DNA of 64,000 nucleotides from Candidatus Poseidonia alphae (GCA_002505405.1 DAVD01000046.1:39534-103533); one strand, 5' to 3'; positions 33,401 to 52,000 are shown, counted from the first letter of the stretch. Notes: generated from the sequence alone by a model not told the origin. Translations and numbers: made by a program.

Positions 33401-35825
33401 TTCCAGTGTCAAATACCACGATTCCACCGGCGTCACTGTTGGTGTTGCATGAATCGCCTCGCAGCCAAGTGAACGATGGATTCGCACCGTGGCTGTGGTT
33501 CAGTTCAATTGTAGCCTCGGTGACACGGTCGACATCGTCTCCCGGAGCAACTCGAGTAATGAGGTTTCGATAGGCCCCATCGGGTGAAGCCAACCCCCCT
33601 TCAAAGGAGGCATCAATTGCACGAGTTTGCATGGCGTAGGTCACGTCAATATTGGACACACGGATGCGTCCAGAGGTAGCTGCTTTGATTGCAATAGGAA
33701 TCTCAAGCATTCCTTCTCCGTTTTCGGGAATGTAATCGTTAAAGGCATCGATCAACGATGGAGCTTTCTTCACAATGACGCCTACTTGGGATTCATCTGA
33801 AGCTATTACGGCAGATTCGTTGAGGAAAATCATCGCTTCCCAATCGTAAACTCCATCCCCTCCAATATCGATCATTGGCCGGTCAGGATATCCTTCTTCA
33901 TACCACAGAATGAAACTGTCAACGGTTGGCGTGACGGCAGTGTTGTTGGTGGTCATGAAGATTGCATAACGCAAGGTATTCCCTGCAGCATCGGTTGAGA
34001 AACTTGTTTCAACATTGTTTTCGGCATCCAACCAAGTGCTTCCGTTGTCGTTAGAAACAGATACTTGAAGGGTCGTCCCAGCGGGGACATCCGCAACCCA
34101 TGCTGGCCGCACTTTACCGACCTTTGTACCCGTATTGTAATACGGTGAGGTCCAATCTCCAGTGGGAGCATATGCCGTTGCTGTATCAATATCAACCCAC
34201 CATGAGACTGCAGTTGAGCCGATTAATTGAGCTTTCCAAACCAATTCCTTTCCTGGATAATCAAAGTGAATCGTGGAATTGGAGACCACCTGTTCCCAGT
34301 GGGTCCCATTATCGGCAGAAATCCAGTAATCAACACGATCTCCAATCGATGCCGCAGACCAGTAGGTCTGAACGTTAGCAGACAAAACATCGTCTGCATA
34401 CTCGGTCACTGGACCGTACCATGTGGTGGTTCCTGGTGCAGGGGTTGTTTCATACATCCAACTCGTCCCGAATTCACGGTAGTACAACGAAGCCCCTGAC
34501 CAAGTTGAATAGCCGGAATCAACGGTGATGAAGCGGTCTCCATCAAACTGCAATCCATAACCGAGGCGTGAGATTTGGCGTGTGTTTGATTGTGGAATAA
34601 GTGCTTGAGCAGAGCCGGAGATGTCCCATGCTTCCAGTTGATCTTTGTCGTTGTAGTATGAATCCTTCTGGCAACGCATGAAAAACGTCGTTGAGTTGAC
34701 CTCTAATCCACGAACCATTTGATTGGATTGTCCGCACTCACGGCTGCTTGATGAGGACGATGTGAAGGTGTAGTACTTCTCATCGCGGTCCCATGTTGAG
34801 GTACCATCGCCACTGAAATCGTAAGATACAATCTTGCCCCCTTGATTGTGAACTACCCAGACCTTATCGGTATCTCTGTCGTAAGCAATTCCGGTATAAT
34901 CACCCGCACCTGCGGAAATATCGTATGAATCGATGCACGTCCAGACACTGTCCCTGGAAATGTCCATTTCCAAAACACGGTGGTAATTCACAGGCGCATT
35001 GGAACTGGAGATGGATCGGTATCCAGATATAATTCCGAACAGTCGTTCATCGTCCGTGACCGTCCAATCTCTAAATCCATAATATCCATAGTATGAGGAA
35101 GAATGTTTCTGAGGCAGATTGCATTGAGCCTCGTCAAGTGTGATAATGGATTCTCGGCTTGCGTTATTGGGGTAAAGCCGATGAACAACATTGTTGAAGG
35201 ATGAAGAGGACCAAGTTGACAGGAACAGCCAATCGTGGTGCTTGAGAATCGCTCCTTGACTTTGAGCCATGAAACTCGAGGAGGTTTTGGTTATTTGTTG
35301 AGAGAAGAGCCCTTCTGTTGCGTTTGAGGTGTGTGGTTGACGCAGAGCATAGGAACCGTTGTCCAACCAGGCATCGGAATTGGGGTCGGCTTCTTCATCA
35401 AACCCGTGGGGGTGGAAGGATTCGCTGATGCTGTCCATTGAAAGCGTCAAGTCGCCACTGCGGTCATCCATGTTCGTCTCTTGTCCGGCAACCCATTGTG
35501 CACGTGTGTCGGAAACCACTTGTGACCATCCGGTTGCAGAGGCCCCGGACAACGTCATGCTAACATCGGTAACCAAGGCGCCGCGCGGGAGGTTGACCTT
35601 TGCCCCATTGTCTGGATTGGCGCCCTGGTAGAGAGCAACATATTCCGTAGAACCGTCATGGAACTCGTACACGTGACGAGTACCTGCTGCCGCATTAGAG
35701 TCCTCCGAAATGAAGGAGGTGAGGGGGCTGAGAGGTGTCGTTACCATCAAAATAACGAGCAGCCAAAAAGCGCCGCGAGAGAAAAGTGTATGCGTATCGC
35801 TACCCTGCATACTTCGTAGACACAC
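30429..35825 (-). CDS. Giant type I membrane surface protein (1,798 aa) with BNR/Asp-box motifs
   Basis: A hydrophobic signal is present (FSRGAFWLLVILMVTTPLSPL). Asp-box motifs are SVSNDNGSTW (about 34031-34062) and the near-match SADNGTHW (about 34293-34325). Many sequons are visible. A C-terminal TM helix (IFSITLFLIALISVSFGLWAMVM, about 30680-30770) is followed by a 90-aa acidic, Pro-rich tail ending LPNGWTTEQWDSYGWQYIDALTK. An alternative start (MQGSD) lies at 35810. Confidence 0.8.
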   Translation of the reverse strand: MCLRSMQGSDTHTLFSRGAFWLLVILMVTTPLSPLTSFISEDSNAAAGTRHVYEFHDGSTEYVALYQGANPDNGAKVNLPRGALVTDVSMTLSGASATGWSQVVSDTRAQWVAGQETNMDDRSGDLTLSMDSISESFHPHGFDEEADPNSDAWLDNGSYALRQPHTSNATEGLFSQQITKTSSSFMAQSQGAILKHHDWLFLSTWSSSSFNNVVHRLYPNNASRESIITLDEAQCNLPQKHSSSYYGYYGFRDWTVTDDERLFGIISGYRSISSSNAPVNYHRVLEMDISRDSVWTCIDSYDISAGAGDYTGIAYDRDTDKVWVVHNQGGKIVSYDFSGDGTSTWDRDEKYYTFTSSSSSSRECGQSNQMVRGLEVNSTTFFMRCQKDSYYNDKDQLEAWDISGSAQALIPQSNTRQISRLGYGLQFDGDRFITVDSGYSTWSGASLYYREFGTSWMYETTPAPGTTTWYGPVTEYADDVLSANVQTYWSAASIGDRVDYWISADNGTHWEQVVSNSTIHFDYPGKELVWKAQLIGSTAVSWWVDIDTATAYAPTGDWTSPYYNTGTKVGKVRPAWVADVPAGTTLQVSVSNDNGSTWLDAENNVETSFSTDAAGNTLRYAIFMTTNNTAVTPTVDSFILWYEEGYPDRPMIDIGGDGVYDWEAMIFLNESAVIASDESQVGVIVKKAPSLIDAFNDYIPENGEGMLEIPIAIKAATSGRIRVSNIDVTYAMQTRAIDASFEGGLASPDGAYRNLITRVAPGDDVDRVTEATIELNHSHGANPSFTWLRGDSCNTNSDAGGIVVFDTGNCTSTVDALGVVSIWIPTLVNWSWDDETDLEATITVKDDLGVAVDRWDTTSMNLVIENDIQLDGLQVWEETGRQLYPMDWVRGGFNLSFAGGLHFQDSQLMPPAGSFSLRVIGQNVTYDGDPIGASVLLHEEVNPAFGEYNLTFVSPVESAPGGMIFYVQAVDLENGSTYSNPGYNSIRLILDGNSPLVLSATPSDGEERHAGSTGVGQAVSLVVQDSVDPPQQITLNYWVGCRASDAIGCNDYNFDGLPNEDEYERKTLSSPETRAGGLNIFEGLIDDSMLLHEQRVSYFITGKDQQDNLIAMGGGPVCPVTNVVCGDRPGEVLPDWSADLSTYTIRQEFEPTVDLGNSSILGHDDYEPLHPGIPYTARILISDQNGWDDIQFIQVALGGDLDDDESSLFISLAPDENGDPVAVMETGSDFIAVSNLYSTVELDATNKSVVVIQARFQLTWQFPESFDTDGVSHFIPKVLVADLPCNEGEIEPCFETRFGMGDDWWSLDNDFRFDTEDGHIRAVELRNSENHYNSENIETIIGAGQALRVNGRVLFSEDETPAPAGAFDVVFGDFENNWRTSTRADGEFSLDLLVPAVRSGHLDLRLNMDDLPGLAFDETPVQPRVRLAVDSVRPTIESIGLNTVLPGAPLSIGDASNLKVMLETNDENGFDYSEPALLHYRVKAGEAEISRGSVLLPDIAPFGSQFFWSGNLDLTDSGATTLLPSYTVDVWVSGSDEAGNPFDTLGNSMTDPFASWPLALLGPRVDLQHEATVLQWDNPSPNEGELVSMLVTADNLAGDGSVTFALQRLVDGGFWSTTSEASLEATSGRTLRASLPTVADVPAGQSVQYRVLVLVDGVEMDRHTVDSLMVKEETARDGDALSQQVSDDIFSITLFLIALISVSFGLWAMVMRRRFLNPEEEDEADQTNVVDEEMKQNTKLVPDLTEAPAPTSPQPNMTALPGLDRTVPPPVPPTGLPNGWTTEQWDSYGWQYIDALTK

Positions 35826-38800: not shown

Positions 38801-41634
38801 CTCACGAGTGACCATTGATATTCACAGAGATTGGGCAGTCCATCGCCATCAGCATCCCAGTTTGCGTCGTCTGCACGCAGCGGATCGAGACTCCAGTTAT
38901 TACCGCCCGTGAATGACATACCCACCCAACGTCGGTGTTGAATTTCCCAACCATCGGGCATTCCATCACCATCAGAGTCTGGATTTGTTGGGTCGGTCCC
39001 TGAATCGACATTGGCTACATTGAGGTAGGTGGCGTTTGCTGATTGTCCTGCAGCATCGTCACAAACATAGTACAGTTGTACCGTGTAGTGGCACCACAAA
39101 TTGCTGTTCTCGTAAAAGAAGCCGAAATATTCAGCGCCGTCTTTGACTCCATCACCGTCAGTATCCCCTAATGACGGTGTTGTTGAATTATAACCATCGG
39201 GGGTTGTCTTGACGTATCGGAATTCATCGAGGTTTGTCCACAAACGGTCCAATGAAAAATCTCCAGATTGGTCCAAGTCAATTCCGTCGCCGTCGGTATC
39301 GTAGAATGCATCCCAGGGGTCAGTCGGGTCCAATCCATTGACGACTTCCCAGCCGTCAGGCATGCCGTCAGCATCTGAATCGTTTGCTCCAGGGTCAATC
39401 AGTTGGAGGTTAGCAAATCTGCCGGGTGAAGCGCCTCCGAAGACCGTTGTATTTCCGTTCATATCGAGGCTGGCTAGCGTTGTAATTTGACCGGGCAGAC
39501 GAGTCTGGTCTTGTTGCCCATAGACGGCCATGTAATCGCCGGCAATTGCCCAGAGACCCCAATCCGAACCGACGAGAATCTCATCACCCGTTGGTAGGAT
39601 GGCATAAACGTCATTGGTTTCTTGGGCAAGGGTTCCATCAATACCGGGGTGAACTAAAAGACCGCCATGGTCGATTGAACCGCTAACTAAATCCATTTTG
39701 TGAACTCCAGAAGGCGTCCCAAACCAGAGGGCTTGTGCATTTTCATCGGATGGACCGTCAAGCGCCATATCACGTACTTCGGCTGGATTGTCAACGACAC
39801 CAAGTGGAAGGCCGTGAAGCTGGCTGATGGAGGTTCCAATTGGTGTACTTTCGGTCGTGAAGAAGAACTGCCATTCAGCAACGGCTTCATCACGAGCAGA
39901 TGCAGTCTCAACCGTCAACAAGCCACGGTCGGTACCGACAAAGAGCGTGTAAGTCGAACCTCCAGCAGCTCCGTGTTGAATTACCGTTACCGATGCATTC
40001 GAGATTTCAAGAGCGTCACGGAGACCAGCACCGAGGGCGTATGTAGAAACGATCGACGCGTCTGGGCCAATTTCCAAAACTGCCCCTTCCCCTGCATGAC
40101 CGAGGGCAATGATTTGTTGATTACCATCCATTCCGGAGAGTTGTGCAACAGCACTGACCTCACCCATCATGCTCCAATCCCAGGATGAAAGCGGGCCGAG
40201 TGAGCCGTCAGCGAGCAAGGGACTTACCGCCACTCCTGCGCTTGTTGAAAGCGCCAATGCAAACGGTTCATCACCGTTGAAAACCAGTGTCCCGTCGTGG
40301 AGTTCAATACCTTCGGGCAACCATTGATGCAAACTCGTCTGTTGTTCAAGATTGAGGACACTCACTCCGTATTTTGTCATGACGTACAGATGGTCACCGT
40401 TCTGGTCGAGGGAACGTACATCGTAGTGATTGACGGACATTGCATCTTCTTCCGCATCATAAACGAGGGGATGAACAATGAATTCATCAGAACCGGTCAT
40501 GACTCCCGTAGATTTCAATCCAGGGTAAACCGTGTTTCCACCGTCATAGTGAACGAGGTATTCTTCCAGTGTCGACAACGCTTCACCCAGTTCCAGGGCT
40601 GTGAATGTACGGGCAAGATCGGGAGTGACAGCCCCATCTCGATTGAAATCCCAACCGTCCATATCTGGGTCGTCAAGAGCATTGGTTCGATTGAGGGGAT
40701 TCAAACCGAAATGTGCTTCCCAACCGTCGGGAATTCCGTCGCCGAAGGAAGGGTAGAGATTACGAATCGAGAACCCATCCCAATGATAACGGTCTGAATC
40801 GTCAAGCAGAGGGTCGGTACCCAACCAAAGGTCTTCCCCAATTGGAGCAGTGGAATTTGTTGTGCATGCGGGCAAAATGTTGTGGAAGGTTGCATTCGCC
40901 CCCGAGGGTAAGAACGGCCAATTTTTCAGCGGAGAGCCGCCAGGGAGTGTTGCATGACACCACAAGCCGTCGAGTTCAGTCGTGAAACTTGCCGTGGTTC
41001 CAAAGGCATATTCCTCTGGCGCTGTGAATCGTTCCGCAAGACTTAGCGTACCATCTCGGTCAACATCGAATCCATCGTTATCCCCGTCAAGAGTGAGGTC
41101 ACTGCCGTTGAGTGGATTGTACGACCCGCAATCATAACGAAGCGATGCGGCATCAAAACCACCGACTCTGAGGCACATGTAGGCCTCAAAACCGTCAGGC
41201 ATACCGTCGCCGTCTGTATCCGACATGCGTGGATCAAGGTAGGTTCGCTCGTTGTTCTCATCGAGAATTCCGGTAAGCCCTCTTGGAAACCCGGGTTCCG
41301 TACAATTTGCTGGATAAGGCCAACAGAATTCTTCGGTAGCGTTCAACCCATCCCGGTCAAAATCCATTGAGGCGTCCGATGCGTTGTCTTTGTCCATGCC
41401 TTGCATGAAGACACTCCGCCCATCGACTGCAGTCCAGTTCATCCATTCCTCAAACAGTATTTCATGAACGTCTGGAATCATGTCACCGTCTGTATCGGTA
41501 TTGGGAGGTGGGGACTGATCCGTATCATCAGGGTGAACGTTGGCAACGCTAGAAATGGATGGAAATTGAGACATGAACAGAAGGCTCGATATCACTGCTA
41601 AGGTCGTGAGAAGGGTTGTTTGACTTCTTCGCAT
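35881..41634 (-). CDS. Giant secreted protein (1,917 aa) with about 20 thrombospondin type 3-like Ca-binding repeats and a central Reg_prop-like beta-propeller
   Basis: Signal peptide: MRRSQTTLLTTLAVISSLLFMSQFPSISSVA. D-x-D-x-D-G-x-x-D-x-x-E repeats are present (DTDGDGMPDGFE, DSDADGMPDGWE, DSDGDGMPDGWE, DSDDDGMPDGWE, DTDGDGMLDGVE, DTDGDGMIDGFE, DSDSDGIPDGWE, DSDGDMIPDWYE and others). Propeller blade motifs are LFVGTDRGLLTV, LWFGTPSGVHKM and ILVGSDWGLWAI. There is no C-terminal TM helix. GGGTGAT lies 5 nt upstream of the ATG. Confidence 0.85.
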   Translation of the reverse strand: MRRSQTTLLTTLAVISSLLFMSQFPSISSVANVHPDDTDQSPPPNTDTDGDMIPDVHEILFEEWMNWTAVDGRSVFMQGMDKDNASDASMDFDRDGLNATEEFCWPYPANCTEPGFPRGLTGILDENNERTYLDPRMSDTDGDGMPDGFEAYMCLRVGGFDAASLRYDCGSYNPLNGSDLTLDGDNDGFDVDRDGTLSLAERFTAPEEYAFGTTASFTTELDGLWCHATLPGGSPLKNWPFLPSGANATFHNILPACTTNSTAPIGEDLWLGTDPLLDDSDRYHWDGFSIRNLYPSFGDGIPDGWEAHFGLNPLNRTNALDDPDMDGWDFNRDGAVTPDLARTFTALELGEALSTLEEYLVHYDGGNTVYPGLKSTGVMTGSDEFIVHPLVYDAEEDAMSVNHYDVRSLDQNGDHLYVMTKYGVSVLNLEQQTSLHQWLPEGIELHDGTLVFNGDEPFALALSTSAGVAVSPLLADGSLGPLSSWDWSMMGEVSAVAQLSGMDGNQQIIALGHAGEGAVLEIGPDASIVSTYALGAGLRDALEISNASVTVIQHGAAGGSTYTLFVGTDRGLLTVETASARDEAVAEWQFFFTTESTPIGTSISQLHGLPLGVVDNPAEVRDMALDGPSDENAQALWFGTPSGVHKMDLVSGSIDHGGLLVHPGIDGTLAQETNDVYAILPTGDEILVGSDWGLWAIAGDYMAVYGQQDQTRLPGQITTLASLDMNGNTTVFGGASPGRFANLQLIDPGANDSDADGMPDGWEVVNGLDPTDPWDAFYDTDGDGIDLDQSGDFSLDRLWTNLDEFRYVKTTPDGYNSTTPSLGDTDGDGVKDGAEYFGFFYENSNLWCHYTVQLYYVCDDAAGQSANATYLNVANVDSGTDPTNPDSDGDGMPDGWEIQHRRWVGMSFTGGNNWSLDPLRADDANWDADGDGLPNLCEYQWSLVRNMGLAGELMELYGESPESVEQWALADPNAIDSDGDTLPDGWESKGLCSWDPSRIGVNPLNGSDAFENPDGDGYDINHDGVLDLNESFVNYLEYHLRSDLFLGNQTLDGQTLPGGFSTNLFDHVSDYGIPEATFAERASGAVTSGQSTYSIGASDPLSSDSDDDGMPDGWEIWFARWDLLDDEWTLNPLDSADRWDDTDEDGMTNWEEYNVIAPELSETDNERSSPQWFVTTIGQAYALQQWPGVTTEESFGSFITQDQINMTGLTSDPNNVDTDGDGMLDGVELLFTAWNSTAGTWTLNPLVAGDGLFDGDEDGLIDLQEFNLAEAQPDNGIAHPSDAPLMHIDGDFQQPTEKAQRVFNILITKDTRGKRLLNDFNAWQQGEPPTAFIDVILGMTDPTIADTDGDGMIDGFEYWFTNWDLDQNRWSMNPLIDGDVNLDSDGDSFDCNGDGTIDVNETFSNLREWESRTYGHYLNRGTVPANLGLVDFGEDAMAAYTEELGFTAIQAQQALYQDFVKKGTDSQDRMDEINTYDAENFNRSLRGAADPTHPDSDSDGIPDGWEYCYAIFAMDDPTTINHWAANPINPWDVDYDGDHDGWYDRTSFDVPSTQGVWVDRALVPSGQVIQNGIGSLPFTNIMEFENETRPDSNDSDGDSISYITTVENGVVISHVQDFNYSDGREVFKYGSNPSDNDSDGDMIPDWYEYKRAWNESNDNFSSYLSIRVVWIDVATGGACDTSTNSCLPLSQDGSGGTLGRPDIEFTWFTMDPSDPNDANQDPDQDGNWDCSGAGCTYEPYTNFQEFYAITLSEYSSPNAVRLSGLTFEGSPVTEGWQFRAAILGLGQPDELIQNYLKLDQYSGIDRQFGYIVNDYDTNFLTVDSSDDVILMAGNLTDAWEIYYQGSPNTPPVRNVGEHEYGWYLLDFDDDHLAEGSDPTNWDTDGDWMNDWFEVRDDEEDGVRGDSSPIRYDSRTTE
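35960..41510 (-). repeat. Intragenic dispersed, degenerate repeats encoding the TSP3-type DxDxDGxxDxxE calcium-binding loop
   Basis: The repeats are also visible at DNA level on the plus strand as recurring ccgtc/ccatc-gggcat-nccgtc-nnc-atc units, for example near 38295, 38950, 39350 and 41195. Confidence 0.75.
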
Positions 41635-41823
41635 TGAATCACCCGCTACAAAGCATACGCTTCGCTACAATGGCACCTTGGAAAGATTGCTTATGAGGAT
41701 GATGGAACAATGTTCATACAAATTCAAATTCCCGCCACTCCGTAAACCTCGGAAAAAAGCATTTTAACAGCGGAAATTATCGGTGTATTCAAGTTCCTTC
41801 CGCGCAGGGGTTACAGCGTTCCC
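41635..41823. promoter_or_regulatory. Divergent intergenic region, presumably holding the promoters for the TSP3 giant gene (-) and the MBL/pilin-like operon (+)
   Basis: This is the largest non-coding gap in the window (189 nt). A purine-rich stretch plus AT box, GGAAAAAAGCATTTTAAC (about 41751-41768), lies about 55-75 nt upstream of the ATG at 41824. No tRNA-like or C/D-box pattern was found. Promoter element assignment is tentative. Confidence 0.3.
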
Positions 41824-42645
41824 ATGCCGATGACCATCACCCACCTTGGTACAGGAAGCCGCGGCAATGCCACGCTTCTTGAGACTCCAAAGGTCAAGGT
41901 TCTTGTCGACCAGGGTTTTAGCGGCACTCAATTAGCAAAACGCCTTGCTCGGCTCAACCTCGAACCTACCGATATCGATTGTTTGTTAATTTCCCACCAT
42001 CACGGTGATCACGGAGGTGGCGCTGCAGTATGTCAAAACAAATGGGAGATACGGGTTCTCGCCAACGAACGAACCGCCCTTGAGCTCGGACTCAACCCCG
42101 AATTAACCACGTTCTTTTCCTCACTCGATATCGTCCATATCGGAGACGATCTCGCCGTACTCCCCGTACCGGTCCCGCACGACGGATCAGATAACGTCGC
42201 ATTCGTCGCCAGTCATGCTGGAGAGCGTGCTGCAATCATCACCGACTTGGGATCATGGACCGATGAACTCATCGCTCATGTTCGTGGCTGTGAGCACATT
42301 TCAATCGAAGCCAATTACGACCATAACCGCTTGGTATCGGGGCCTTACCCCTACTCATTAAAAGACCGAATCACGGGCCGTGGCGGCCACTTGTCAAACG
42401 ACCAAACGGGACAATTCCTTGCGGAAGTTTGCACCGATTCCACCCGCAGCATAACGCTAACCCATTTGAGTGAAAAGAACAACCAGCCTCACATTGCCGA
42501 ATCAACGGTACTTTACTACATTGATGAAGTGTTCAATGGAGACCTCACCATTTCACTTCAAACGGGCCCAGACTTTTCTCTTTATGTTGGGAAAGAAGGG
42601 CATCATGAGGATGCGCCGAATGCCAAAAAACAAGTCACCAAATGA
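41824..42645 (+). CDS. MBL-fold metallo-hydrolase, YycJ/WalJ-like
   Basis: THLGTGSRGNATLLE, the HxHxDH motif ISHHHGDHGGG (about 41991-42025), YPYSLKDRITGRGGHLSN and ITLTHLSEKNN closely parallel bacterial YycJ-type proteins. Confidence 0.88.
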   Translation: MPMTITHLGTGSRGNATLLETPKVKVLVDQGFSGTQLAKRLARLNLEPTDIDCLLISHHHGDHGGGAAVCQNKWEIRVLANERTALELGLNPELTTFFSSLDIVHIGDDLAVLPVPVPHDGSDNVAFVASHAGERAAIITDLGSWTDELIAHVRGCEHISIEANYDHNRLVSGPYPYSLKDRITGRGGHLSNDQTGQFLAEVCTDSTRSITLTHLSEKNNQPHIAESTVLYYIDEVFNGDLTISLQTGPDFSLYVGKEGHHEDAPNAKKQVTK

Positions 42646-42690
42646 CGGTTTAACCTAAAAACAAGGTCAATGGCTAAATGATACCTCATC

Positions 42691-43764
42691 GTGTCATCAC
42701 TCGTGAACCGCCAAGCCGCCGCATTACGCTCCCCTCGCCTACGTCGCGAAGAGCAAGCGGTCAGCGAAGTATTGGGGGTCGTCATGCTCCTCGCAATGGT
42801 CATAACCATCATGGGCGGGGTGTGGGTTTTCCTCAACCCCTATCTCTCAGACTTTGAAGACAACACCAACTGGAAATCCGCAACAGGTCTTGCGGACAGA
42901 ATCGAAGACAGGGTCGAAGTGGCGGGAAATGCACCTGAGGGAACTGGATTTCGAAACACATTAGCCATGCAGTCCACCTCCATCCTCACCGTCCAGAACA
43001 TAGAACAGTGGACCATTTCTGCTGATTTCACTTCTCAAGAGCGTATCGAAATTCGCCAAGTCAATGACACCGTCATCGCTGTAACGGCCGCCAATGAATC
43101 TGCAAGGAGCATGACCATACAATCGCCTGCAATCACGGTTGAACGGACCGTGCCTACGACTTCTCAGGAAGTCTTCATCGACCACAATGCAACGCACCCT
43201 CATTGGATGATCGTCACCGTATTCGATGAACAAGGCGACGCCTTGCACCGTACAGTATATGCATCCTTATCGGGAATCCAAGTCACCACCTCACTTGGTC
43301 AAGGAACGCATGAAATCGTGATGATGAACAACGGTCGAGCGGAGCGGTTTCCCAATGGGGCATGGGATGTCACAGCCATGCCGCTTGTTGAATTTGACCG
43401 GATGGCTAACGAAGAACTCCGTTTGTCAATCCTGCTCACCGATATCATCGGAAACGGCTCAATTGGGAGCGGAACGAACATCGGGATGGAATTCGTATCG
43501 CTTGGCCCGTTAACCTTGTTCACTGGAGAGGCATTCAACGTCCGTTTTAGTGTCACCAATGTCCTCCATGATGTCGTGACTCCACAGTACCATGAAACAT
43601 GGCTGTCTGATTATACCATTCAACGCTCTGCAGGAACCCTTGATTCCTTCATCGGATTTTCACCCTATCAAAGAGCGAGTGGCTCTGATGGATTTACCAT
43701 CGCCTCCCAGGGAGCACCCCTGTACTTTGAAGTGGACTATCAGCGAGTAGAGGTGGGCAGATGA
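42691..43764 (+). CDS. Archaeal type IV pilin-like protein (class III signal peptide, Pilin_N/DUF1628-type N-terminus), 357 aa
   Basis: The N-terminus is charged, then ...LRREEQA/VSEVLGVVMLLAMVITIMGGVWVFL, which matches the archaeal prepilin pattern. The start is GTG (42691 or 42703); there is no in-frame ATG before the hydrophobic helix. Confidence 0.7.
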   Translation: MSSLVNRQAAALRSPRLRREEQAVSEVLGVVMLLAMVITIMGGVWVFLNPYLSDFEDNTNWKSATGLADRIEDRVEVAGNAPEGTGFRNTLAMQSTSILTVQNIEQWTISADFTSQERIEIRQVNDTVIAVTAANESARSMTIQSPAITVERTVPTTSQEVFIDHNATHPHWMIVTVFDEQGDALHRTVYASLSGIQVTTSLGQGTHEIVMMNNGRAERFPNGAWDVTAMPLVEFDRMANEELRLSILLTDIIGNGSIGSGTNIGMEFVSLGPLTLFTGEAFNVRFSVTNVLHDVVTPQYHETWLSDYTIQRSAGTLDSFIGFSPYQRASGSDGFTIASQGAPLYFEVDYQRVEVGR

Positions 43765-45995
43765 AGCACAACCTGCAGCGTGATGAAGAGGCAGTTTCCG
43801 CTGCAGTCGCCACGGTTCTCTTGTTCGGAGGTGTATTGTCAATTATCGGGTTGATGATGGTATCATTGATGCCGGTCATTGAGGAGTTAGAAGGCTCTGT
43901 GGAGCGTCACGACATGTCGGCCCAAATGACCCTTCTCGCTCATGAAACCTCAGAACTCAGCGAGCGAGGTATGCCCGGAGATTCCACACATTCCACCCTT
44001 GTCCCCGTTGATGGAAACCTCGTCTGGGACTCTTTACGAGGAGGAATGTGGTACTCAGCAACATGGCATGAGGACATGAGTCTAAGAGCGAGAGGAGCCC
44101 TTGATTTTGACGACTCGCTTGAAATTCGCCATCCAGAGACATTTATTTCCTCGGTGTGCATTTCTGACCTTCGCCAAGGACCGGACCGTCATTATTTCTA
44201 CACCGTTGACGCCCAAGTTGACCAAGCCCTTGTCTCGGTGGCTCCTGGTCTCGCCATGCCTTTGGGTCCAGTTGATGTCACGCTCAGCTCATCAGGAACC
44301 GAGATTTCGACGTTGGACCTTCGTGTTGATGAGTTGGAATCGTTTGATCTGTCAGCACTCGGCGTCGTCACCGTGTCATCAAGTCATGAGTTGGTCGTCC
44401 TCGCCCAAATTGGGACCGGTGGGACGACCTATCTTGAGCCGACGGACCGAGAGCCATCCGATAAGAGGGGCCAATCATGGGCAATCCCTATGGAAGCAGG
44501 GATATCAAAGGTTCACCTGTTGAGCGATAAGGCCAATCAAATTCAAGTCACCACTTCCAATGGAACAGAATTGTTCTACGCTCAACCAAGTGACATGTCC
44601 CGCACAGCAGTCACATTCACCCATGAATTCAATCTCACTTCCGATCAGGTTGTTCAAATTACAACAAGTGCTGCTTCAAGAATGATGTATCAATCAGAAC
44701 CAGCCAATACAACGGGCATCACATCTTGGCCAGCAACAACTGGGGCTTACCTAGGCCACTCGTTCACACCTCCTAATCTAGAAGGAACACTTCGCTTCAC
44801 CAATCCAGGTGATGCAATCGTAACGGTGACTTGGAGAGGTGGAGGAATATCGGTCCAACCCAATTCCATTGAGCAGGTAGCCTGGCCTCCGGAGGAGATT
44901 CTTGGGGCTCCGACCCTCGATGCAGACGGAGATTTTTTCGTCACATGGGCGGCATCGGGAACGACGAACATTACTGACGCAGTCTCTGGAATCACGATGA
45001 TTCCCGCTGATGATACCGGTTCAATTTCGGGAGCAGCCTTTTCTTATTACAATACGGATAACGCGGTCAATGAACACCTCAACATTGTTCTTGCAGGCTA
45101 CACGTCCACATGGAATGCGAGTGGAGTCGCCAACCAAACAGGAGTATTTTTGGGCGACAATAACCGATACAATCTAACGCTTAACGAGGGAACAACAGAT
45201 GTTGCGGTTGAGAAAGACCACCCTGTTCGCATCACACGCTTCAGCGGTGAAAACGGACTCTACCACCTCCCCCACGATGGCGAACAACGTTGCACCCAAA
45301 TAGCAACCCAAGCCAGCGGGTGGATTACGACAGAACTTCCTTGGGAACGAATGGGAGGTCGTGGAGAGATTGACATCCAAAAGGCTTGGAGAGAAGGCCG
45401 CCACCCCTCAAGTGTAGCCATAGAAGTCTTGGGGAGTGACGGAACATCAACACACGCCACCATCGGTACAGTTTGGGCGTTCCATCTTTCACGACTCGCC
45501 TATCAATTCCAATCATCAATTACTGGAATGGAAGTTGCATTCAGCGGAGGTGCTGTTGTGACCAACCACCCTGAATTCCAACCGTATGTGGTCGTCCCCC
45601 CATCTGACCGTGGTGGACCTGGCCCCCGCTTTGCAGCAACCATTCCGTCACTCCACCCCACGGCAGACAGTGCCTCTGGAGCCGGCACACTGGAACTCGA
45701 CATTGAACTCGTCCACCGTATTTCCCTTGCATCAACACCGGCATACGAAGTGAGGCGGGGCTGGTCGGAGCCCTACGGCGCAGCGATTGCAGACAGTGCT
45801 GGAATCGGACTCGAAGCCAGTGAAGATTGGACCGTATATCCAGGGCAATTGGACCTCTTGACTGATTATGTAGGCTGGGTGCCGGACCCAAGTTATGGTA
45901 CGTCCGAAGCCGTCTGGCACACCAACGGCCAAGCCATTGAATTCACACTTCAACTTTCATCACTGGACGTCACGACTCGGGAGGCGCTGACATGA
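43761..45995 (+). CDS. Large archaeal type IV pilin-like protein (class III signal peptide), 744 aa
   Basis: MKHNLQRDEEA/VSAAVATVLLFGGVLSIIGLMMVSLMP. The start overlaps the upstream stop (ATGA). Confidence 0.7.
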   Translation: MKHNLQRDEEAVSAAVATVLLFGGVLSIIGLMMVSLMPVIEELEGSVERHDMSAQMTLLAHETSELSERGMPGDSTHSTLVPVDGNLVWDSLRGGMWYSATWHEDMSLRARGALDFDDSLEIRHPETFISSVCISDLRQGPDRHYFYTVDAQVDQALVSVAPGLAMPLGPVDVTLSSSGTEISTLDLRVDELESFDLSALGVVTVSSSHELVVLAQIGTGGTTYLEPTDREPSDKRGQSWAIPMEAGISKVHLLSDKANQIQVTTSNGTELFYAQPSDMSRTAVTFTHEFNLTSDQVVQITTSAASRMMYQSEPANTTGITSWPATTGAYLGHSFTPPNLEGTLRFTNPGDAIVTVTWRGGGISVQPNSIEQVAWPPEEILGAPTLDADGDFFVTWAASGTTNITDAVSGITMIPADDTGSISGAAFSYYNTDNAVNEHLNIVLAGYTSTWNASGVANQTGVFLGDNNRYNLTLNEGTTDVAVEKDHPVRITRFSGENGLYHLPHDGEQRCTQIATQASGWITTELPWERMGGRGEIDIQKAWREGRHPSSVAIEVLGSDGTSTHATIGTVWAFHLSRLAYQFQSSITGMEVAFSGGAVVTNHPEFQPYVVVPPSDRGGPGPRFAATIPSLHPTADSASGAGTLELDIELVHRISLASTPAYEVRRGWSEPYGAAIADSAGIGLEASEDWTVYPGQLDLLTDYVGWVPDPSYGTSEAVWHTNGQAIEFTLQLSSLDVTTREALT

Positions 45996-46468
45996 AGCAG
46001 GTCAGATTGTCACGGGATACCCGTGCTGCTGCTACCGAACTTGGATACGTGTTTACGTTCCTCCTTGGCGTACTGTTGATGACGATTTTCAGCGTATGGG
46101 CCTGGGATATTGAAACAAATACTCGACTTCGATGGAACGAAGAAGCCGTTGAAGCAAATCTGAACGACCTTGCCGCTGCTGTAGAGCGAGCAGACGAAGC
46201 GAGCCGTATTGGGAATGTAAGCTATGCTGAGTCGGTCGCATGGCGACCATCGGAAGCGGATGAATCGATGTTTTGGCTACGCCTAAGCGATACTTCGTTG
46301 AAACTGATTGACAAGGGGGGACCTCTTGACATGACCGTGGCCTTATCCGGAACAGGCAGTGGTGAACATAGCGGTGAAATCCCACTTGCTGGAGCCCAAC
46401 AGATATGGGTGGTCCATGAAAACGGCACCACTACAGTGACTCTTGATCGGCCGCAAGCAGTTCAGTGA
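45992..46468 (+). CDS. Small archaeal type IV pilin-like protein (class III signal peptide), 158 aa
   Basis: MKQVRLSRDTRA/AATELGYVFTFLLGVLLMTIFSVWAW. The start overlaps the upstream stop (ATGA). Confidence 0.65.
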   Translation: MKQVRLSRDTRAAATELGYVFTFLLGVLLMTIFSVWAWDIETNTRLRWNEEAVEANLNDLAAAVERADEASRIGNVSYAESVAWRPSEADESMFWLRLSDTSLKLIDKGGPLDMTVALSGTGSGEHSGEIPLAGAQQIWVVHENGTTTVTLDRPQAVQ

Positions 46469-49003
46469 TCATCGACCCATAACCGCACGGTGGACCATCA
46501 TCTGCACTTCCTTCATACGAGAGCGTGCACCCAGTTCACGGAACACTGAAAGGGCGCGCTGAAGGTATTCCATGCGTCCTTGTCGGTCCGGTGCCGCACC
46601 GCCGAGGCGGGTGAGAAGTTCTCCGATTTGCATACGTAGGTCATTGGCTTCAGCAATAACGAGAGCTTCACGATAATGCTCCATCGCATCTTCAGTTCGT
46701 CCTGCGTCATGAAGCACTTCCCCAAGAAGAATGGTAATTTCGACCAAGGCTTGAAGGTCACCAGCTTCGTTCATCGCCTCCAAAGCAGCGGTATAATGGA
46801 ACATAGCGAGTTCTGATTGTTCTATCTTTGAATAGTACCGCCCAAGAACCGCTTGCGCACGTGCATGAAGTGCAGCATCACCCATTGATTCTGTTGCTTC
46901 ATGGGCATCCATTGCATGTTCACGTGCACGTTGAACCTCTCCGAGGTCGAGAAGAGCCCGGGCAAGCGTGATTTGACTGCTCAGCAGTTCATTGCCTTTT
47001 GACTGAGCAAGAATCGCTTCAACCTCTCCATATGCCTCTAGGGCCTTATTACGGTCGTTTTTTCTTCGAAGAAGGTAGCCAATGTTGTTGTATGTACGGG
47101 CAGCCCACATTGCATTGCCTTGGCTGATGTAGTGCTTGAGAGCTTGTTTGTGGCGAGCCAGAGCAACATCACTGTTCCCTTGCTTCCGACTTACGTCTGC
47201 AAGTGACGAGAGAATTTCTGCTTCAATTGAAGGATTGTTGGCTTCTTTCGCCCCTTCAAGCGCCTTGTTGAGAACCTCTTCAGCATGCGCTAACCTACCA
47301 AGAAGCGCAAGAATATCACCCTGCAATTGAGCGAGAAGAACAACGGTGCTTGACTCCAGATCTGCCGTATCAATTCGTTCCAACAGGCCAAGCAATTCCA
47401 TGTGTCCTTGGGATACGAGATGCCGTCCTTTGTCCATGATGAGTTCCGAGGCTGATTCAAATTGATTGGACTGAATTGAATGGTAAATAAGTTCAATCGT
47501 AACTTCGTTGGATTGAGGTTGTTTTTCATACCACTCCATGCATTTTGAGTGGAATTCTTCTTTAAGCGATGTAGAAAGGCTACGTAATAAAAACTCACGA
47601 ATCAAATCGTGGACGTCATAGGTGGTTGAATCTGCCTGACGAGCCAGGCCAGATTCCACTAAATTATCAAGTTCGTCGGTGTCCAACTGCTGCAGTGCAA
47701 GCGCCTCGAGGACCATCGGCTCTCGGTAAATGGAAAGGGCAGAAAGCACACGCTTTTGCTCAGCGCTTAATTTGGAGAAAATCTCTACGGTGACATAATG
47801 CTCCAAGGTTTCGTGGAAGGCACCGGCTGATGCCCCACGGTTGATGAGTTCGAGCACCAGAGGGTGGCCTCGGGAGAGCCCATGGATGTGAAGCCACTGC
47901 TCGTCTTCAAGATTTGAAAAACTGCTGAGCAACTTTCGGCCCGACTCAGGGTCGAGTCCGTCCAATGGAAGGACCAAACTAGCAATTCTACCTTCAGCGT
48001 CTTTCGTGGGAACAACTGGCTTGAATGAACGCGAGAAGATAACCAAGCCAATTTTTTCTTCACTTCCGAGTAAAGCGATGGACATGGCTTGGAACGTCTG
48101 ATGCAGTACCAAATCGGAAACTTTGTGGAAATCATCAATGACAATGAGTGAAGGTGAACCTTCAAGCGCTTCTATGAGCAAACGGGCAGCATCAGCCGGT
48201 TGCGGAATTGGCGTTGCTGCAAGGTAACTCGCAAATTCCGAATTGCCCATACTGGACAACCAATCAGCAATGGATTCAAAAAACGAACGAGAACCTTCCC
48301 AATCCTGGCAGCGATGATAGAGAAGGTTGCGACGATGCATAAATCTCTCAATCAATTTTGAGGCCACGGTAGTTTTCCCGATACCTGCAATTCCGGGAAC
48401 CAGAAGAGTTGTTGCCCGTGCTTCAATCAAATTACCCATGTTGTCCAGTTCGGTTGTTCTTCCGTAAAAGTGTCGAAGCCGAGGCAAATCTGCTAGAGAG
48501 GTCACCAACTGCTTTTCCACGTGTTTGGAAAGGTCACGCTCAATCAAATCTTGAGACAAGGAGCGAGCATCAAGACAACCGTTCTCGTCCATGTATCGAA
48601 TCACGTCGACGGGGCGCATTTCGAAGGGCAAAACCGACTTCACACCGCCAAGAGTGGTGTCCACTGGTTGCTCTTCGCCTAAGATACAGCGAAGAGGAAA
48701 TTCTGACAACCGAGTCCAAGTTTCCGAGGCCATGATGATGCCGCTGTCGGTAAGGAAATACGCTTTCCTCTTCCGAGAAACTCCCTTGACGTGAGCCTGC
48801 CGTTCTACCAATATACCTTGATCTTTTAATCCCGAAATTGCACGAGGCACATTTGACCTTGCAATTGCAACGGCGTTGGCAATTCCCATTTGGGACAAAG
48901 CAAAAGGTACCTCAATGCTATTTTTGAAATCCGAATAGTCAAGGAGGTGCAAGAGGATTCTCTCTTGTACACCTGGCTTAGGTTGCGCTGCCATTTGATT
49001 CAA
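46469..49003 (-). CDS. STAND-type P-loop NTPase with an N-terminal winged-helix DNA-binding domain and C-terminal TPR array (AfsR/MalT-like architecture)
   Basis: The wHTH-like N-terminus is ERILLHLL...LSQMGIANAVAIARSNVPRAISGLKDQGILVERQ...KRKAYFLTDSG. An AAA_16/NB-ARC-like lead-in FYGRTTELDNM is followed by Walker A LLVPGIAGIGKTT (about 48368-48394) and Walker B SLIVIDDFHK. The C-terminal roughly 350 aa have TPR-like periodicity (A..YNNIGYLLRR.....AL.AY, RA.A.LG.YY......A...Y..AL). Confidence 0.8.
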   Translation of the reverse strand: MNQMAAQPKPGVQERILLHLLDYSDFKNSIEVPFALSQMGIANAVAIARSNVPRAISGLKDQGILVERQAHVKGVSRKRKAYFLTDSGIIMASETWTRLSEFPLRCILGEEQPVDTTLGGVKSVLPFEMRPVDVIRYMDENGCLDARSLSQDLIERDLSKHVEKQLVTSLADLPRLRHFYGRTTELDNMGNLIEARATTLLVPGIAGIGKTTVASKLIERFMHRRNLLYHRCQDWEGSRSFFESIADWLSSMGNSEFASYLAATPIPQPADAARLLIEALEGSPSLIVIDDFHKVSDLVLHQTFQAMSIALLGSEEKIGLVIFSRSFKPVVPTKDAEGRIASLVLPLDGLDPESGRKLLSSFSNLEDEQWLHIHGLSRGHPLVLELINRGASAGAFHETLEHYVTVEIFSKLSAEQKRVLSALSIYREPMVLEALALQQLDTDELDNLVESGLARQADSTTYDVHDLIREFLLRSLSTSLKEEFHSKCMEWYEKQPQSNEVTIELIYHSIQSNQFESASELIMDKGRHLVSQGHMELLGLLERIDTADLESSTVVLLAQLQGDILALLGRLAHAEEVLNKALEGAKEANNPSIEAEILSSLADVSRKQGNSDVALARHKQALKHYISQGNAMWAARTYNNIGYLLRRKNDRNKALEAYGEVEAILAQSKGNELLSSQITLARALLDLGEVQRAREHAMDAHEATESMGDAALHARAQAVLGRYYSKIEQSELAMFHYTAALEAMNEAGDLQALVEITILLGEVLHDAGRTEDAMEHYREALVIAEANDLRMQIGELLTRLGGAAPDRQGRMEYLQRALSVFRELGARSRMKEVQMMVHRAVMGR

Positions 49004-49016
49004 CTCGATTCAACCG

Positions 49017-52000
49017 TCACTGATCCGGAGTGTAGTCAGGGTCAGGAGCCCACTGGTTTGTTCCTTCGTCCCAGATCCAGCCAGGATGCTGAGATGTCTC
49101 CGCGGGTACAGCCGCAACTTCAGGAGTTGCTACCGCTTGAGCCGTTACTTCTTGCTGGGGAATTTCTACCGTCTTCTTGGCTTTGGCCCATGCATAGGGG
49201 TCTTCTGCAGCAGCGAGGTTTTCATCGTCCTCTTCTGAGACATCTGGAATCTCTTCAAATTCAACGAAGAAGAAGGCTCCAACACCGAGGAGAACAATGA
49301 TACCGCCTACAATCAAGATGATGCTCAAGAGTGAAGAATCATCATCATTACCGCTTGAAACGACAATGCTGAACTCTCCGTTTTCAGTCTCTCCTGCAAA
49401 TTTGAAAACCTGACCGTCCATTTCGAAAATTATTTCTTCATTTCCTTCCATGCTGAGTTGGCTGTTTGTCAAGTCCATGGTCCATGTTCCATCGGAAAGA
49501 ACCCTCGTCGAGTTGAGTTTTGCGTTTCCATTAGCAAACCTGATGTTGACCGTACTACCAGGCAGTCCTTCACCCTGGAAGGATGCTGGATCATCTGGAG
49601 TGATTGGTCCGCTATCAACACGTTCAACGCTGAAAGCAACTGCTCGTACGAGGAAGTTTACCTTGATTGAATAGGCCCTGGATTCTTGGTCATCCTCTGC
49701 ATAAAACATCACTCCATTGAGTGACCATTCAGGTATTTCACTGGTGACCTGTGCAATCGAATCCATCGGATCATAGATCGCTTTTCCATCTGCAGTGATA
49801 CGGATGTACGATGAATAGTCGTCATCTTCAAGTGTTCCGGCATCGTTGTAAACATAGAAGGAAAGTGCATCGCTAGCCTCGCCAATACCATCAGGGTCAC
49901 TGAAAAATTGAGTCAGGTCTATCGTAGCCCCTCCACCGCATCGGTCAAACGAATTTGATTGAGAATCACAGAAGATGGTCACACTTCCAATCCAACCGGC
50001 ATCGTTGAAGACAGGGTCAATGTTGTTGGCGTCAATTGGATTGTTAATGGTCATACGCCAGACCGTATCCACAGAATAGTCCTCACCGTCGTATGCGCGT
50101 ACGGTGACTTCGTATACACCATCATGGTCAAGTTTGGAGGTATCCCAGGTCGCCGACCATGAGCCATCGGGATTGAAGGAGGTCACTGGAAGAGGTCCAT
50201 TGTTGAGAGTGATACTGGTACCGAGGTCTACGATCTCAATTTCCACACGAGTTACCTGTCCGCCGATGTCACGAGCAACACCAACAATTGTTGTATCATC
50301 GGATGCTCGGACTGTATCTCCATCAATACCGCCGGTCATTTGGTCTGCAGAACCAATCCAGGTGAGTTGCAACTGAGGCGGAGTGTTTTCATTGACGATG
50401 GTCAGAACTCGAGTCTCAATGACACAAACTCCACCGTCTTCTGGTGCTACTGCTACATCGATACAAAAGTCGCTATCCGATGCCCAGACCTCAAAGGTGT
50501 ATTCACCGGATGGAAGTTCAGAAAAGTCCCACTCGTGGGACCAGCTTGTTGAGCCTTCTTCGTAATAATGGGAAATGTAATCGTTTTCTGGACTGGTGAT
50601 ATGGAACCAAATCTTCTGAACGTCGCTACCGTATGTCCCTGCGTAGGGGTCTGCTGCTGTTCCTTGGAACAACACTTTTCCATTTGTATGAGTGCTTCCC
50701 GAGTTTGGAACATCAACAACGATGGTAGGAGGTACAAGATTCAGTTTGTATTGACGAACGGAAACAGGGGAATAGTCAAGTCCGTCGTAGGAGCGAACAC
50801 GGAATGTTACGTCTCCCTCTCCACCAGCATGCGCAGACATATCCCAAACAAACGACCAATCCTTGAACGGATGGTTTTCCATTGTGATCATACCGTTAGC
50901 ACCAGAGGTGTCAACTGCTGAATACCAATCATTGGTGCCTGGCGGTTGGACTTCAACAGCGGTGATCATACCAAACTGTTTCGTGCTGGCTGTGTTGTCG
51001 TTTGCATAAGGCCACTTGACGCCGTCCCACGCTTGTCCGGTGAGGTCAACCTTGGTTGCGAACGAAACACCGTCTTGCTGAGTTACGGTAACGCCCGGGC
51101 GTAGATTGTCAAGGTTGATGACGTCATCAATTGGGCCTGAGAGAACATATGAGAAGTCCTTAGTACCGCTTCCGAACTTGAACGCTTCAACCGTGTAGAA
51201 CGGCATTTCACGTCCGTTAATGCAGTCTGCGTCGTCGTCATCAATGAGTGTATCGCCATCGTTATCAATCCCATCCGCACAAGAATCTTCATCCATTGTG
51301 ATGGGCGGGTTGCCTGAGCCAGGGATGATAGCATTCTTGTCACCAACTTTGTGATTCCAATTGCGGTCAAGGAGGAAGTCCGAAGGAAGTGAAACTTGTT
51401 GCGTAAATCCGAATGCGTCGGTCGTCAACTCATACAAGGGCAAACCAGTTGCGTCTTTGATGATGACCGTTGCACCAGCAACGTTGCTGTTCTTAGCCTT
51501 AACTTGGTATCGAACGAGTTCACCTTCACGAACTTGTGAGCCCCATGCCGAGTTTTGGTTTTGGACGTGAATCATCGAAGAGTCAAAGTTCTGGAGGTCT
51601 GCAAAGGAAAACACGGTAGCATTTTCGATCAGTTCAATCGCGAGAGGCATTTGTGCAGGAGGCATGGTGGATGCTTTAGATAGCGACAAACATTCGACTT
51701 GCACGTAGGGGCATTCAGCGCTCATCCAGCTTATGGAAATCGGGTAGAGTTCATTGTTACCTGGGGATGGGATCTGCTCGCTTTGAACGGTGAGTCGAGA
51801 TTCTGTGACGTTGTAAACTTGAGAAACACCGGTCCAAGTATTGCCCGAAAAGTACGCCACTGAGCCGTACTTCATATTGGTTGTTGGGTCGTCATGAACC
51901 GAGATGTTGCCCGCATAGCCAAAGGCTGAGTCGCCAGTGTTTCCTTGGACGTTCACAATGCTACCTGTTGCTCGAATGATGTCACCCGTATTGCCAGAAA

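Follow-up and report, generated by a model that had tools for sequence, protein, structure and literature searches.

Euryarchaeal type IV pili of clade 2 are assembled by ATPase/TadC modules, often with two tadC genes, that use pilins encoded in trans (PMC4858521). Their major pilins belong to the PilA family and are accompanied by a FlaFind-positive, all-beta minor pilin of 250–550 amino acids (arCOG02911), and surface-layer (S-layer)-like proteins or adhesins are frequent extras of these systems (PMC4858521). Here we consider a stretch of 64,000 nucleotides (nts) from Candidatus Poseidonia alphae (GCA_002505405.1), referred to as the window, which corresponds to C35:39534-103533 in a genome of 1.94 Mb and 50 contigs. 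It carries three consecutive genes for pilin-like proteins of 357, 744 and 158 amino acids, designated PA357, PB744 and PC158. Sequence comparisons make it probable that this trio represents trans-encoded accessory (minor) pilins, processed by a prepilin peptidase encoded on contig C30 and assembled by an ATPase/TadC module on contig C9, possibly also by a second module on contig C43.

A clade-2 pilus that can be compared directly is the Haloferax volcanii PilB3/PilC3 system with its pilins PilA1-6. It has in common with Ca. P. alphae the PilB3-type ATPase ends, the two TadC genes (on C9) and pilins encoded in trans. A large all-beta minor pilin with a class III signal peptide, found beside a small PilA-like major pilin, is likewise a feature of both clade-2 pili and the present genome. 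However, PB744 with its 744 residues lies outside the 250–550 amino acids of arCOG02911 and, unlike clade-2 systems, the three genes form a fixed unit coupled in translation, with Poseidoniales-specific sequences. In Cuniculiplasma divulgatum (Thermoplasmatales), the pilin genes of the CdiP pilus lie at a distance of about 500 kb from the operon for the machinery, whose platform is split (Gaines 2025, PMC12448462). The two systems belong to the same phylum and share major and minor pilin genes remote from the machinery as well as two platform proteins. They differ in that CdiP has an Aap-like machinery with two ATPases and has been studied by cryo-electron microscopy (cryo-EM). Moreover, the CdiP minor pilin is a single small protein while the trio is a coupled set with a 744-residue member. 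The Epd pili of Methanococcus maripaludis also resemble our proposal in that several minor pilins (EpdA/B/C) are essential and the major pilin MMP1685 is encoded elsewhere (PMC4858521). They differ by a clade 1 ATPase, the dedicated peptidase EppA and a Gln at position +1, and no sequence similarity to the trio was detected here.

In bacteria, the tip complexes GspI-J-K and PilVWX-PilY1 are stoichiometric sets of pilin-like proteins of unequal size, with one large member, that prime or cap the filament. They show no homology to the trio beyond the general pilin design. We know of no tip complex that has been shown in archaea. Among protein families, the uncharacterized archaeal pilin-like families DUF7289 (PF23960) and DUF7266 (PF23928) resemble the trio in the N-terminal helix and the region adjacent to it, and for PC158 the match to DUF7266 extends along the whole protein. 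In other Thermoplasmatota, bona fide members of these families adjoin a PilB3-type ATPase and two TadC genes. Unlike them, the trio proteins score only 19–22 bits against cut-offs of 27–27.6, and the ectodomains of PA357 and PB744 bear no detectable likeness to the family bodies. A literature search returned no paper mentioning DUF7289, and the sole paper combining Poseidoniales with the word “pilin” was an unrelated soil-community study. Wherever a source names the trio proteins at all, they are called “hypothetical protein”.

The features of the trio locus are the following (window coordinates).

42691-43764, plus strand: PA357 gene, open reading frame (ORF) of 357 amino acids, pilin-like
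43761-45995, plus strand: PB744 gene, ORF of 744 amino acids, pilin-like
45992-46468, plus strand: PC158 gene, ORF of 158 amino acids, small pilin-like protein, DUF7266-like
43750-43764, plus strand: PA357/PB744 coupling junction, GAGGTG at 43750-43755 followed by ATGA at 43761-43764
45979-45995, plus strand: PB744/PC158 coupling junction, GGGAGG at 45979-45984 followed by ATGA at 45992-45995

A previous reading of the window, made from the sequence alone, had described three consecutive plus-strand ORFs of these sizes with characteristic N-terminal segments and ATGA overlaps at 43761 and 45992. All of this was borne out when the DNA was read directly, and both overlaps of start and stop codons are preceded by a Shine-Dalgarno-like motif. 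The three genes are translationally coupled. Public genomes supplied 80 related loci for comparison, and the PA357 and PB744 genes overlap by the same 4 nts in 75 out of 75. Longest-ORF calling places the PB744/PC158 gap at -4 nts in 49 of 78 loci, and the other values probably reflect the choice of start codon. All 73 loci that have the five genes concerned keep the same order, i.e., a gene for a metallo-beta-lactamase (MBL)-fold protein, the genes for PA357, PB744 and PC158, and a STAND gene on the opposite strand. The trio cluster is also found in the first marine group II (MG-II) genome, CM001443.1.

In all three proteins, a short charged leader with a terminal Ala leads directly into about 20 hydrophobic residues at the extreme N-terminus. 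Class III signal peptides have this layout, the last residue of the leader being Ala or Gly. The junction between leader and hydrophobic segment reads …EEQA/VSEVLGVVMLLAMV in PA357, …DEEA/VSAAVATVLLFGGV in PB744 and …DTRA/AATELGYVFTFLLG in PC158. In alignments of the three families, the majority-residue frequency is 0.44–0.60 in the leader, rises to 0.80–0.90 between +1 and +25 and falls to 0.56–0.62 in the remainder; the rise coincides exactly with the predicted cut site, as is classic for pilins. Only one hydrophobic segment occurs per protein, the isoelectric point is acidic and the sequon density is two to three times the genome median (for PB744, 0.94 per 100 residues compared to a median of 0.41). 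Six-frame translations of the whole genome contain only four Pilin_N-style N-termini (a charged residue, A/G, VS.. and a hydrophobic helix), among them those of PA357, PB744 and one bona fide Pilin_N pilin. AlphaFold2 models of PA357 and PB744 display a long N-terminal helix, of 65 and 61 residues respectively, which is followed solely by beta domains. Because the weak Pfam matches are consistent within each family and come together with the jump in conservation and the helix/beta layout of the models, we regard the trio, on sequence grounds, as divergent pilin-like proteins with leaders predicted to be cleavable, in line with the original proposal.

In PA357, residues 1–23 (…RREEQA) form the leader, with a predicted cut before V24 (VSEVLGVVMLLAMV…), and beyond its single N-terminal hydrophobic segment the protein continues as an all-beta ectodomain (pLDDT 87.3, helix 15–79, then beta strands). 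Its own matches to DUF7289 (21.2 bits, cut-off 27) and Pilin_N (21.1 bits, cut-off 25.2) are sub-threshold. In the Pilin_N profile search that the sequence-only reading had recommended, PA357 itself stays under the cut-off but 25 of its 29 orthologues match at E ≤ 0.01 (best E 3.8e-6); for DUF7289 the corresponding figure is 28/29. The top three matches of the PA357 family among PDB profiles are archaeal type IV pilins solved by cryo-EM, although weak (E 0.03–0.24). Column by column, the majority residue of this family reaches 0.44 in the leader, 0.89 from +1 to +25 and 0.61 in the remainder.

The leader of PB744 is MKHNLQRDEEA, with a predicted cut before V12 (VSAAVATVLLFGGV…). Its ectodomain is long, multi-domain and beta, with two invariant cysteines, C133 and C511 (pLDDT 84.9, pTM 0.83, helix 9–69, then beta strands). 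The DUF7289 score of 21.9 bits is again under the cut-off of 27, and the match in both PA357 and PB744 is restricted to profile positions 2–69 of 238. Nevertheless, 31 of 37 PB744 orthologues match DUF7289 at E ≤ 0.01 (best E 1e-7), and many orthologues from other genera carry a precomputed PF23960 match. PB744 and PC158 gave no Pilin_N match in the Pfam search. Aligned with each other by hhalign, PA357 and PB744 share 47 N-terminal columns only, and paralogy beyond the helix was discarded in the absence of any detectable likeness between the ectodomains.

For PC158 (N-terminus …RDTRAAATELGYVFTFLLG…) the cut is predicted near A12/A13, the exact site being uncertain. Its DUF7266 match covers profile positions 2–144 of 145 at 19.3 bits, under the cut-off of 27.6, and only 2 of 9 orthologues match at E ≤ 0.1. 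However, since the PC158 family profile aligns with a bona fide DUF7266 protein over 95 columns in hhalign (probability 87 %, E 3.9e-6), homology to DUF7266 is likely at the sequence level despite the failed Pfam threshold. Residues D9, A13, E16, G18, Y19 and T22–G26 are invariant. The family is narrow: a full HMMER scan of 1.84 billion representative proteins yielded 57 matches, nearly all from the same family, and word-based sequence searches for distant relatives of the trio returned Poseidoniales only.

Hydrophobic N-terminal helices can also be read as ordinary signal anchors, cleaved or not. The trio would then form an envelope complex independent of any pilus, a fixed surface stalk organizing the envelope or giant glycoproteins, which we consider unlikely. 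Such a complex would fit the position of the trio within an extensive cluster of genes for cell-surface proteins and glycosylation and the tight 1:1:1 coupling, which points to a complex of set composition instead of a polymer. It would also fit ectodomains which, the helix aside, have no counterpart among known pilin folds: Foldseek searches of the PDB with the PA357 and PB744 ectodomains found only generic beta-sandwich/jelly-roll matches with a query-normalized template modelling (TM) score of at most 0.19 (at most 0.13 and generic beta-sandwiches only for PB744). On the other hand, conservation as high as that between +1 and +25 is what pilins typically show, unlike generic anchors. Genomic evidence set out below likewise disagrees with a stalk: PC158-like relatives adjoin pilus motors in outgroups, the trio is lost together with both ATPase/TadC modules and, in archaellum-less genomes, the peptidase, and the giant, MBL and STAND genes persist without the trio, which they therefore do not need.

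If the trio proteins are minor pilins, a peptidase, an ATPase and a platform protein should be encoded somewhere in the genome. The contig of the window, C35, gave no match to the T2SSE ATPase family, the window itself not having been scanned directly for T2SSF or peptidase families. All the components are present on other contigs of the same genome.

C30:71740-72735: FlaK/PibD-type prepilin peptidase (Arc_PepC_II 32.7 bits, cut-off 29.9; Asp27 in the first helix; GGADAK motif)
C9:17361-21539: module of a PilB3-type ATPase and two TadC genes
C43:219530-222194: Tad-like module of two small TadC (T2SSF) genes and a T2SSE ATPase of 413 amino acids
C43:227440-227934: PilA-like pilin
Contig C32: archaellum operon with two archaellins, FlaI and FlaJ (operon reading and profile matches)

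The C9 module consists of a T2SSE ATPase of 515 amino acids with a PilB3_C-like end and of T2SSF proteins of 339 and 523 amino acids. The PilA-like pilin, a Pilin_N protein encoded 5 kb downstream of the C43 module, is the only one of its kind that was found. The archaellum operon also holds FlaF and FlaG candidates, judged by operon position and size only. The protein on C30, the sole prepilin peptidase candidate found, was detected by a motif scan and the Arc_PepC_II match of its C-terminal domain, while a whole-genome search with the generic Peptidase_A24 model (PF01478) gave no match, the C30 protein itself scoring 11.5 bits. Automated surveys that use this generic model may wrongly score Poseidoniales as lacking a peptidase. 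The genome search supports the view of the sequence-only reading that the trio depends on machinery encoded elsewhere. In contrast, the absence of such machinery nearby, which had seemed unusual, is not, since the machinery sits on other contigs and archaeal pilin sets encoded in trans have been described before (PMC4858521, PMC12448462). With pilins encoded away from the motor already on record, the trio adds an unannotated, lineage-specific set and no new kind of machine.

On C9, the second TadC gene is followed by a pair of small ORFs that overlap each other (C9:21466-22421). They have class III-like N-termini (…DDEGQ/IHILEMLTLFWLFF and …QRDGAQ/MLLATGVVLLMSLL), one of them with a faint DUF7262 match (E 0.048), and may encode further minor pilins of the same system.

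The best evidence for a partnership with the C9 module comes from outside the Poseidoniales, within which the trio (C35) and the C9 module show no physical linkage. The PC158 family profile was searched against 401 Thermoplasmatota genomes. All Poseidoniaceae genomes listed encode a PC158 family member, as do some genomes of a second taxonomic family, presumably the Thalassarchaeaceae; matches outside the order were weak. In these outgroup loci a larger gene always precedes the PC158-like gene and its N-terminus, where readable, is of the Pilin_N type. At two loci in different families, L142 and L146, a DUF7289-like/Pilin_N-type gene and a DUF7266 gene are directly followed by a PilB3_N/T2SSE/PilB3_C ATPase gene and two T2SSF genes. 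The DUF7266 protein encoded there passes the Pfam cut-off and is the partner of PC158 in the hhalign match mentioned above. The outgroup ATPases share 53–58 % identity and the TadC proteins 31–45 % with those of the C9 module, compared to 30–35 % with the C43 ATPase or FlaI; by this measure, the outgroup ATPase and TadC proteins are orthologous to the C9 module. Since the outgroup pilin pair adjoins C9 orthologues, we propose that the trio is a C9-type pilin set that later became unlinked in Poseidoniales.

At two further outgroup loci (L138 and L145, G064:C86 and G043:C13), a pair of a large Pilin_N-type and a PC158-like gene is followed by a conserved run of membrane proteins of about 400–480 amino acids, with no ATPase within 8 kb of the pilin pair.

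The same comparison bears on the idea that the trio supplies accessory pilins to the C43 Tad-like module and not to C9, which we think distinctly unlikely. Two points speak for it: the distribution of the C43-type ATPase is identical to that of the trio (32/32 among 41 relatives) while the C9 type is missing from two genomes, and the PilA-like pilin located 5 kb from C43 has an N-terminus, DDEAVSPVIATVLLL, nearly the same as that of PB744. However, it is C9 orthologues and not C43 relatives that adjoin the DUF7266 and Pilin_N-type pair in the outgroups, and the two genomes without a C9 match are incomplete, a congener of one of them having the C9 ATPase. In addition, modules can share pilin sets (Makarova et al., PMC4858521), so that C9 and C43 may be compatible as partners.

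Among the 41 relatives, the trio is present in 32, the C43-type ATPase in the same 32 and the C9-type ATPase in 30 of those, while the nine trio-less genomes have neither ATPase. The trio co-occurs as a unit, as the sequence-only reading had expected. The peptidase is present wherever archaellum or pilus modules occur and absent otherwise, with the exception of one genome estimated to be 86 % complete. The archaellum is distributed differently from the trio: neither FlaI nor FlaJ is found in three genomes (G026, G028 and G034) where the trio and the peptidase occur, and a fourth (G035) has archaellum and peptidase but no trio. This contradicts an accessory role of the trio in the archaellum, comparable to that of FlaF/FlaG or minor archaellins, a role that we regard as hardly credible. 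The genome does contain an archaellum operon and FlaF/FlaG-type proteins likewise have pilin-like N-terminal helices, but the operon already includes its own FlaF/FlaG candidates (assigned by position and size only).

The sequence comparisons and gene linkage point to the following scheme for accessory pilins of the C9 module. The leaders of the three proteins would be removed by the C30 peptidase, after which the C9-type module would insert the proteins, in roughly equal amounts, into an adhesion pilus or at its tip or base. The bulk of this pilus would be built of the small PilA-like pilin, and PB744 would be the likeliest adhesive or priming subunit. The genes for the MBL, STAND and giant surface proteins would be neighbours by synteny and stand outside the system.

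Several observations weigh against this scheme. All Pfam matches of the trio’s own proteins fall under the gathering cut-offs, and the likeness of PA357 and PB744 to known pilins is limited to the N-terminal 30–70 residues. The two trio-bearing genomes with no detectable C9 ATPase, G013 and G034, are estimated to be 84 % and 93 % complete. All 12 trio-less genomes, counted in the wider comparison, form one clade with 100/100 support in a tree of the STAND protein, so that the co-occurrence of the trio with the pilus modules reflects one event of loss or gain. Moreover, the phyletic pattern cannot separate C9 from C43 as the partner.

The genes on either side of the trio are as follows (window coordinates).

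41824-42645, plus strand: gene for an MBL-fold protein of 273 amino acids, 45 nts upstream of the trio
46469-49003, minus strand: winged helix-turn-helix (wHTH)-STAND(AAA_16)-TPR gene, 844 amino acids, convergent with the PC158 gene with zero spacing

The upstream gene had been described as a YycJ-type MBL hydrolase. The MBL fold is confirmed (Pfam Lactamase_B_2, 50 bits) but the YycJ label is not, no NCBIfam equivalog scoring over its cut-off. The Pfam domains of the STAND gene are TPR_12, AAA_16 and HTH_Crp_2. The 12 trio-less genomes, which presumably belong to the Thalassarchaeaceae, all retain the MBL gene (51–57 % identity) and the STAND gene (47–54 %), placed tail-to-tail and about 30 nts apart in the coordinates checked (e.g., G037:C1:86300-86333). 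A wider reading of three of these regions (G029, G035 and G037) shows that the genes for a TSP3 protein of 1,917 amino acids, a protein of 1,481 amino acids and an S8 protease are kept in the same order. The giant AglB gene is seen in two of them and the third locus ends before its position. Exactly the trio is missing from the trio-less regions, and its three genes resemble a clean cassette flanked by two genes that are retained.

In the order as a whole, gene order is kept over at least 55 kb across three Poseidoniales families at 25–60 % protein identity (from about 15800 to beyond 64000 in the window, C35:55000-107000). This stretch includes housekeeping genes of the dnaJ region, giant surface genes and the AglB fusion. 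Because order is conserved over such a distance regardless, synteny is weak evidence of functional linkage in Poseidoniales. We therefore rejected a functional unit of the trio with the MBL, STAND and giant genes, neighbours that are retained without it. The MBL and STAND genes are neighbours and not obligate partners of the trio, contrary to the co-occurrence that the sequence-only reading had thought worth looking for. Its suggestion that the trio belongs functionally with the flanking giants is likewise not supported, as the three regions read more widely keep giants in the absence of the trio.

The setting between giant secreted proteins and the unequal sizes of the three pilins had also evoked a pseudopilus or a bindosome-like device that would serve to export or retain substrate-binding proteins or giant adhesins. 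Neither a solute-binding domain (Pfam, NCBIfam) in the trio nor ABC (ATP-binding cassette)-transporter genes adjacent to it were found, and the flanking giants persist where the trio is missing. Two further giants could be cited in favour of such a device, i.e., an FG-GAP protein that follows PilC genes in one outgroup and a surface protein of 1,798 amino acids which, with its paralogue, shares the phyletic pattern of the trio. The latter pattern, however, goes back to the same single clade event, and we judge the device very improbable. To our knowledge, no type II secretion-like pseudopilus has been established in archaea.

The 1,798-residue protein is encoded in the window at 30429-35825 on the minus strand, has no Pfam match and has a paralogue of about 1,690 amino acids at C19:45914-49027. 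Both are present in 11/11 trio-bearing genomes tested and in 0/12 trio-less ones. It may be associated with the pilus, as an S-layer-like protein or adhesin, or may equally well be another casualty of the same genome reduction, as the pattern rests on that single clade event. The outgroup giant (L171:17309-20579; L171 and L146 are the same place in GCA_019347805.1) is a protein of more than 1,657 amino acids with faint FG-GAP matches, encoded after two PilC genes inside a PilB3-type operon. In this it is reminiscent of the adhesins or S-layer-like extras modelled by Makarova et al.

Returning to the trio as accessory pilins of the C9 module, the assignment adds three conserved genes to the type IV pilus repertoire of an order and points to the probable motor, platform and peptidase, all encoded by the same genome. 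The order, the Poseidoniales (marine group II), ranks among the planktonic archaea of highest abundance, and none of its members is in culture. The trio and both pilus modules are missing from one streamlined clade, with genomes of 1.3–1.6 Mb, whose lineage shed about a quarter of its genome. The trio thereby offers a label for annotators and, for ecologists, a candidate presence/absence marker to compare with attached versus free-living lifestyles. A bolder version, unlikely though not negligibly so, would make the trio a heterotrimeric priming or tip complex with PB744 as the adhesin. The trio, both modules and the pair of giants (about 1,700–1,800 amino acids) would then mark attaching lineages, and the loss of the trio the streamlined, strictly free-living Thalassarchaeaceae clade. 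If this is true, all sampled Poseidoniaceae and some Thalassarchaeaceae would be particle- or phytoplankton-attaching, and the trio would be the first defined archaeal minor-pilin complex as well as a genomic marker of lifestyle in an abundant group of ocean archaea.

Contigs from runs labelled as metatranscriptomes were also considered as evidence of expression and set aside. Two runs, X29 and X30, gave contigs of 10.7 kb and 27 kb with flat depth and genes on both strands, the X29 contig spanning all of the window from 40500 to 50000 and the X30 contig reaching 46828; with such uniform depth through the locus, these runs probably contain DNA. One further metatranscriptome contig, of 2.1 kb, joins the MBL gene and the first two genes of the trio.

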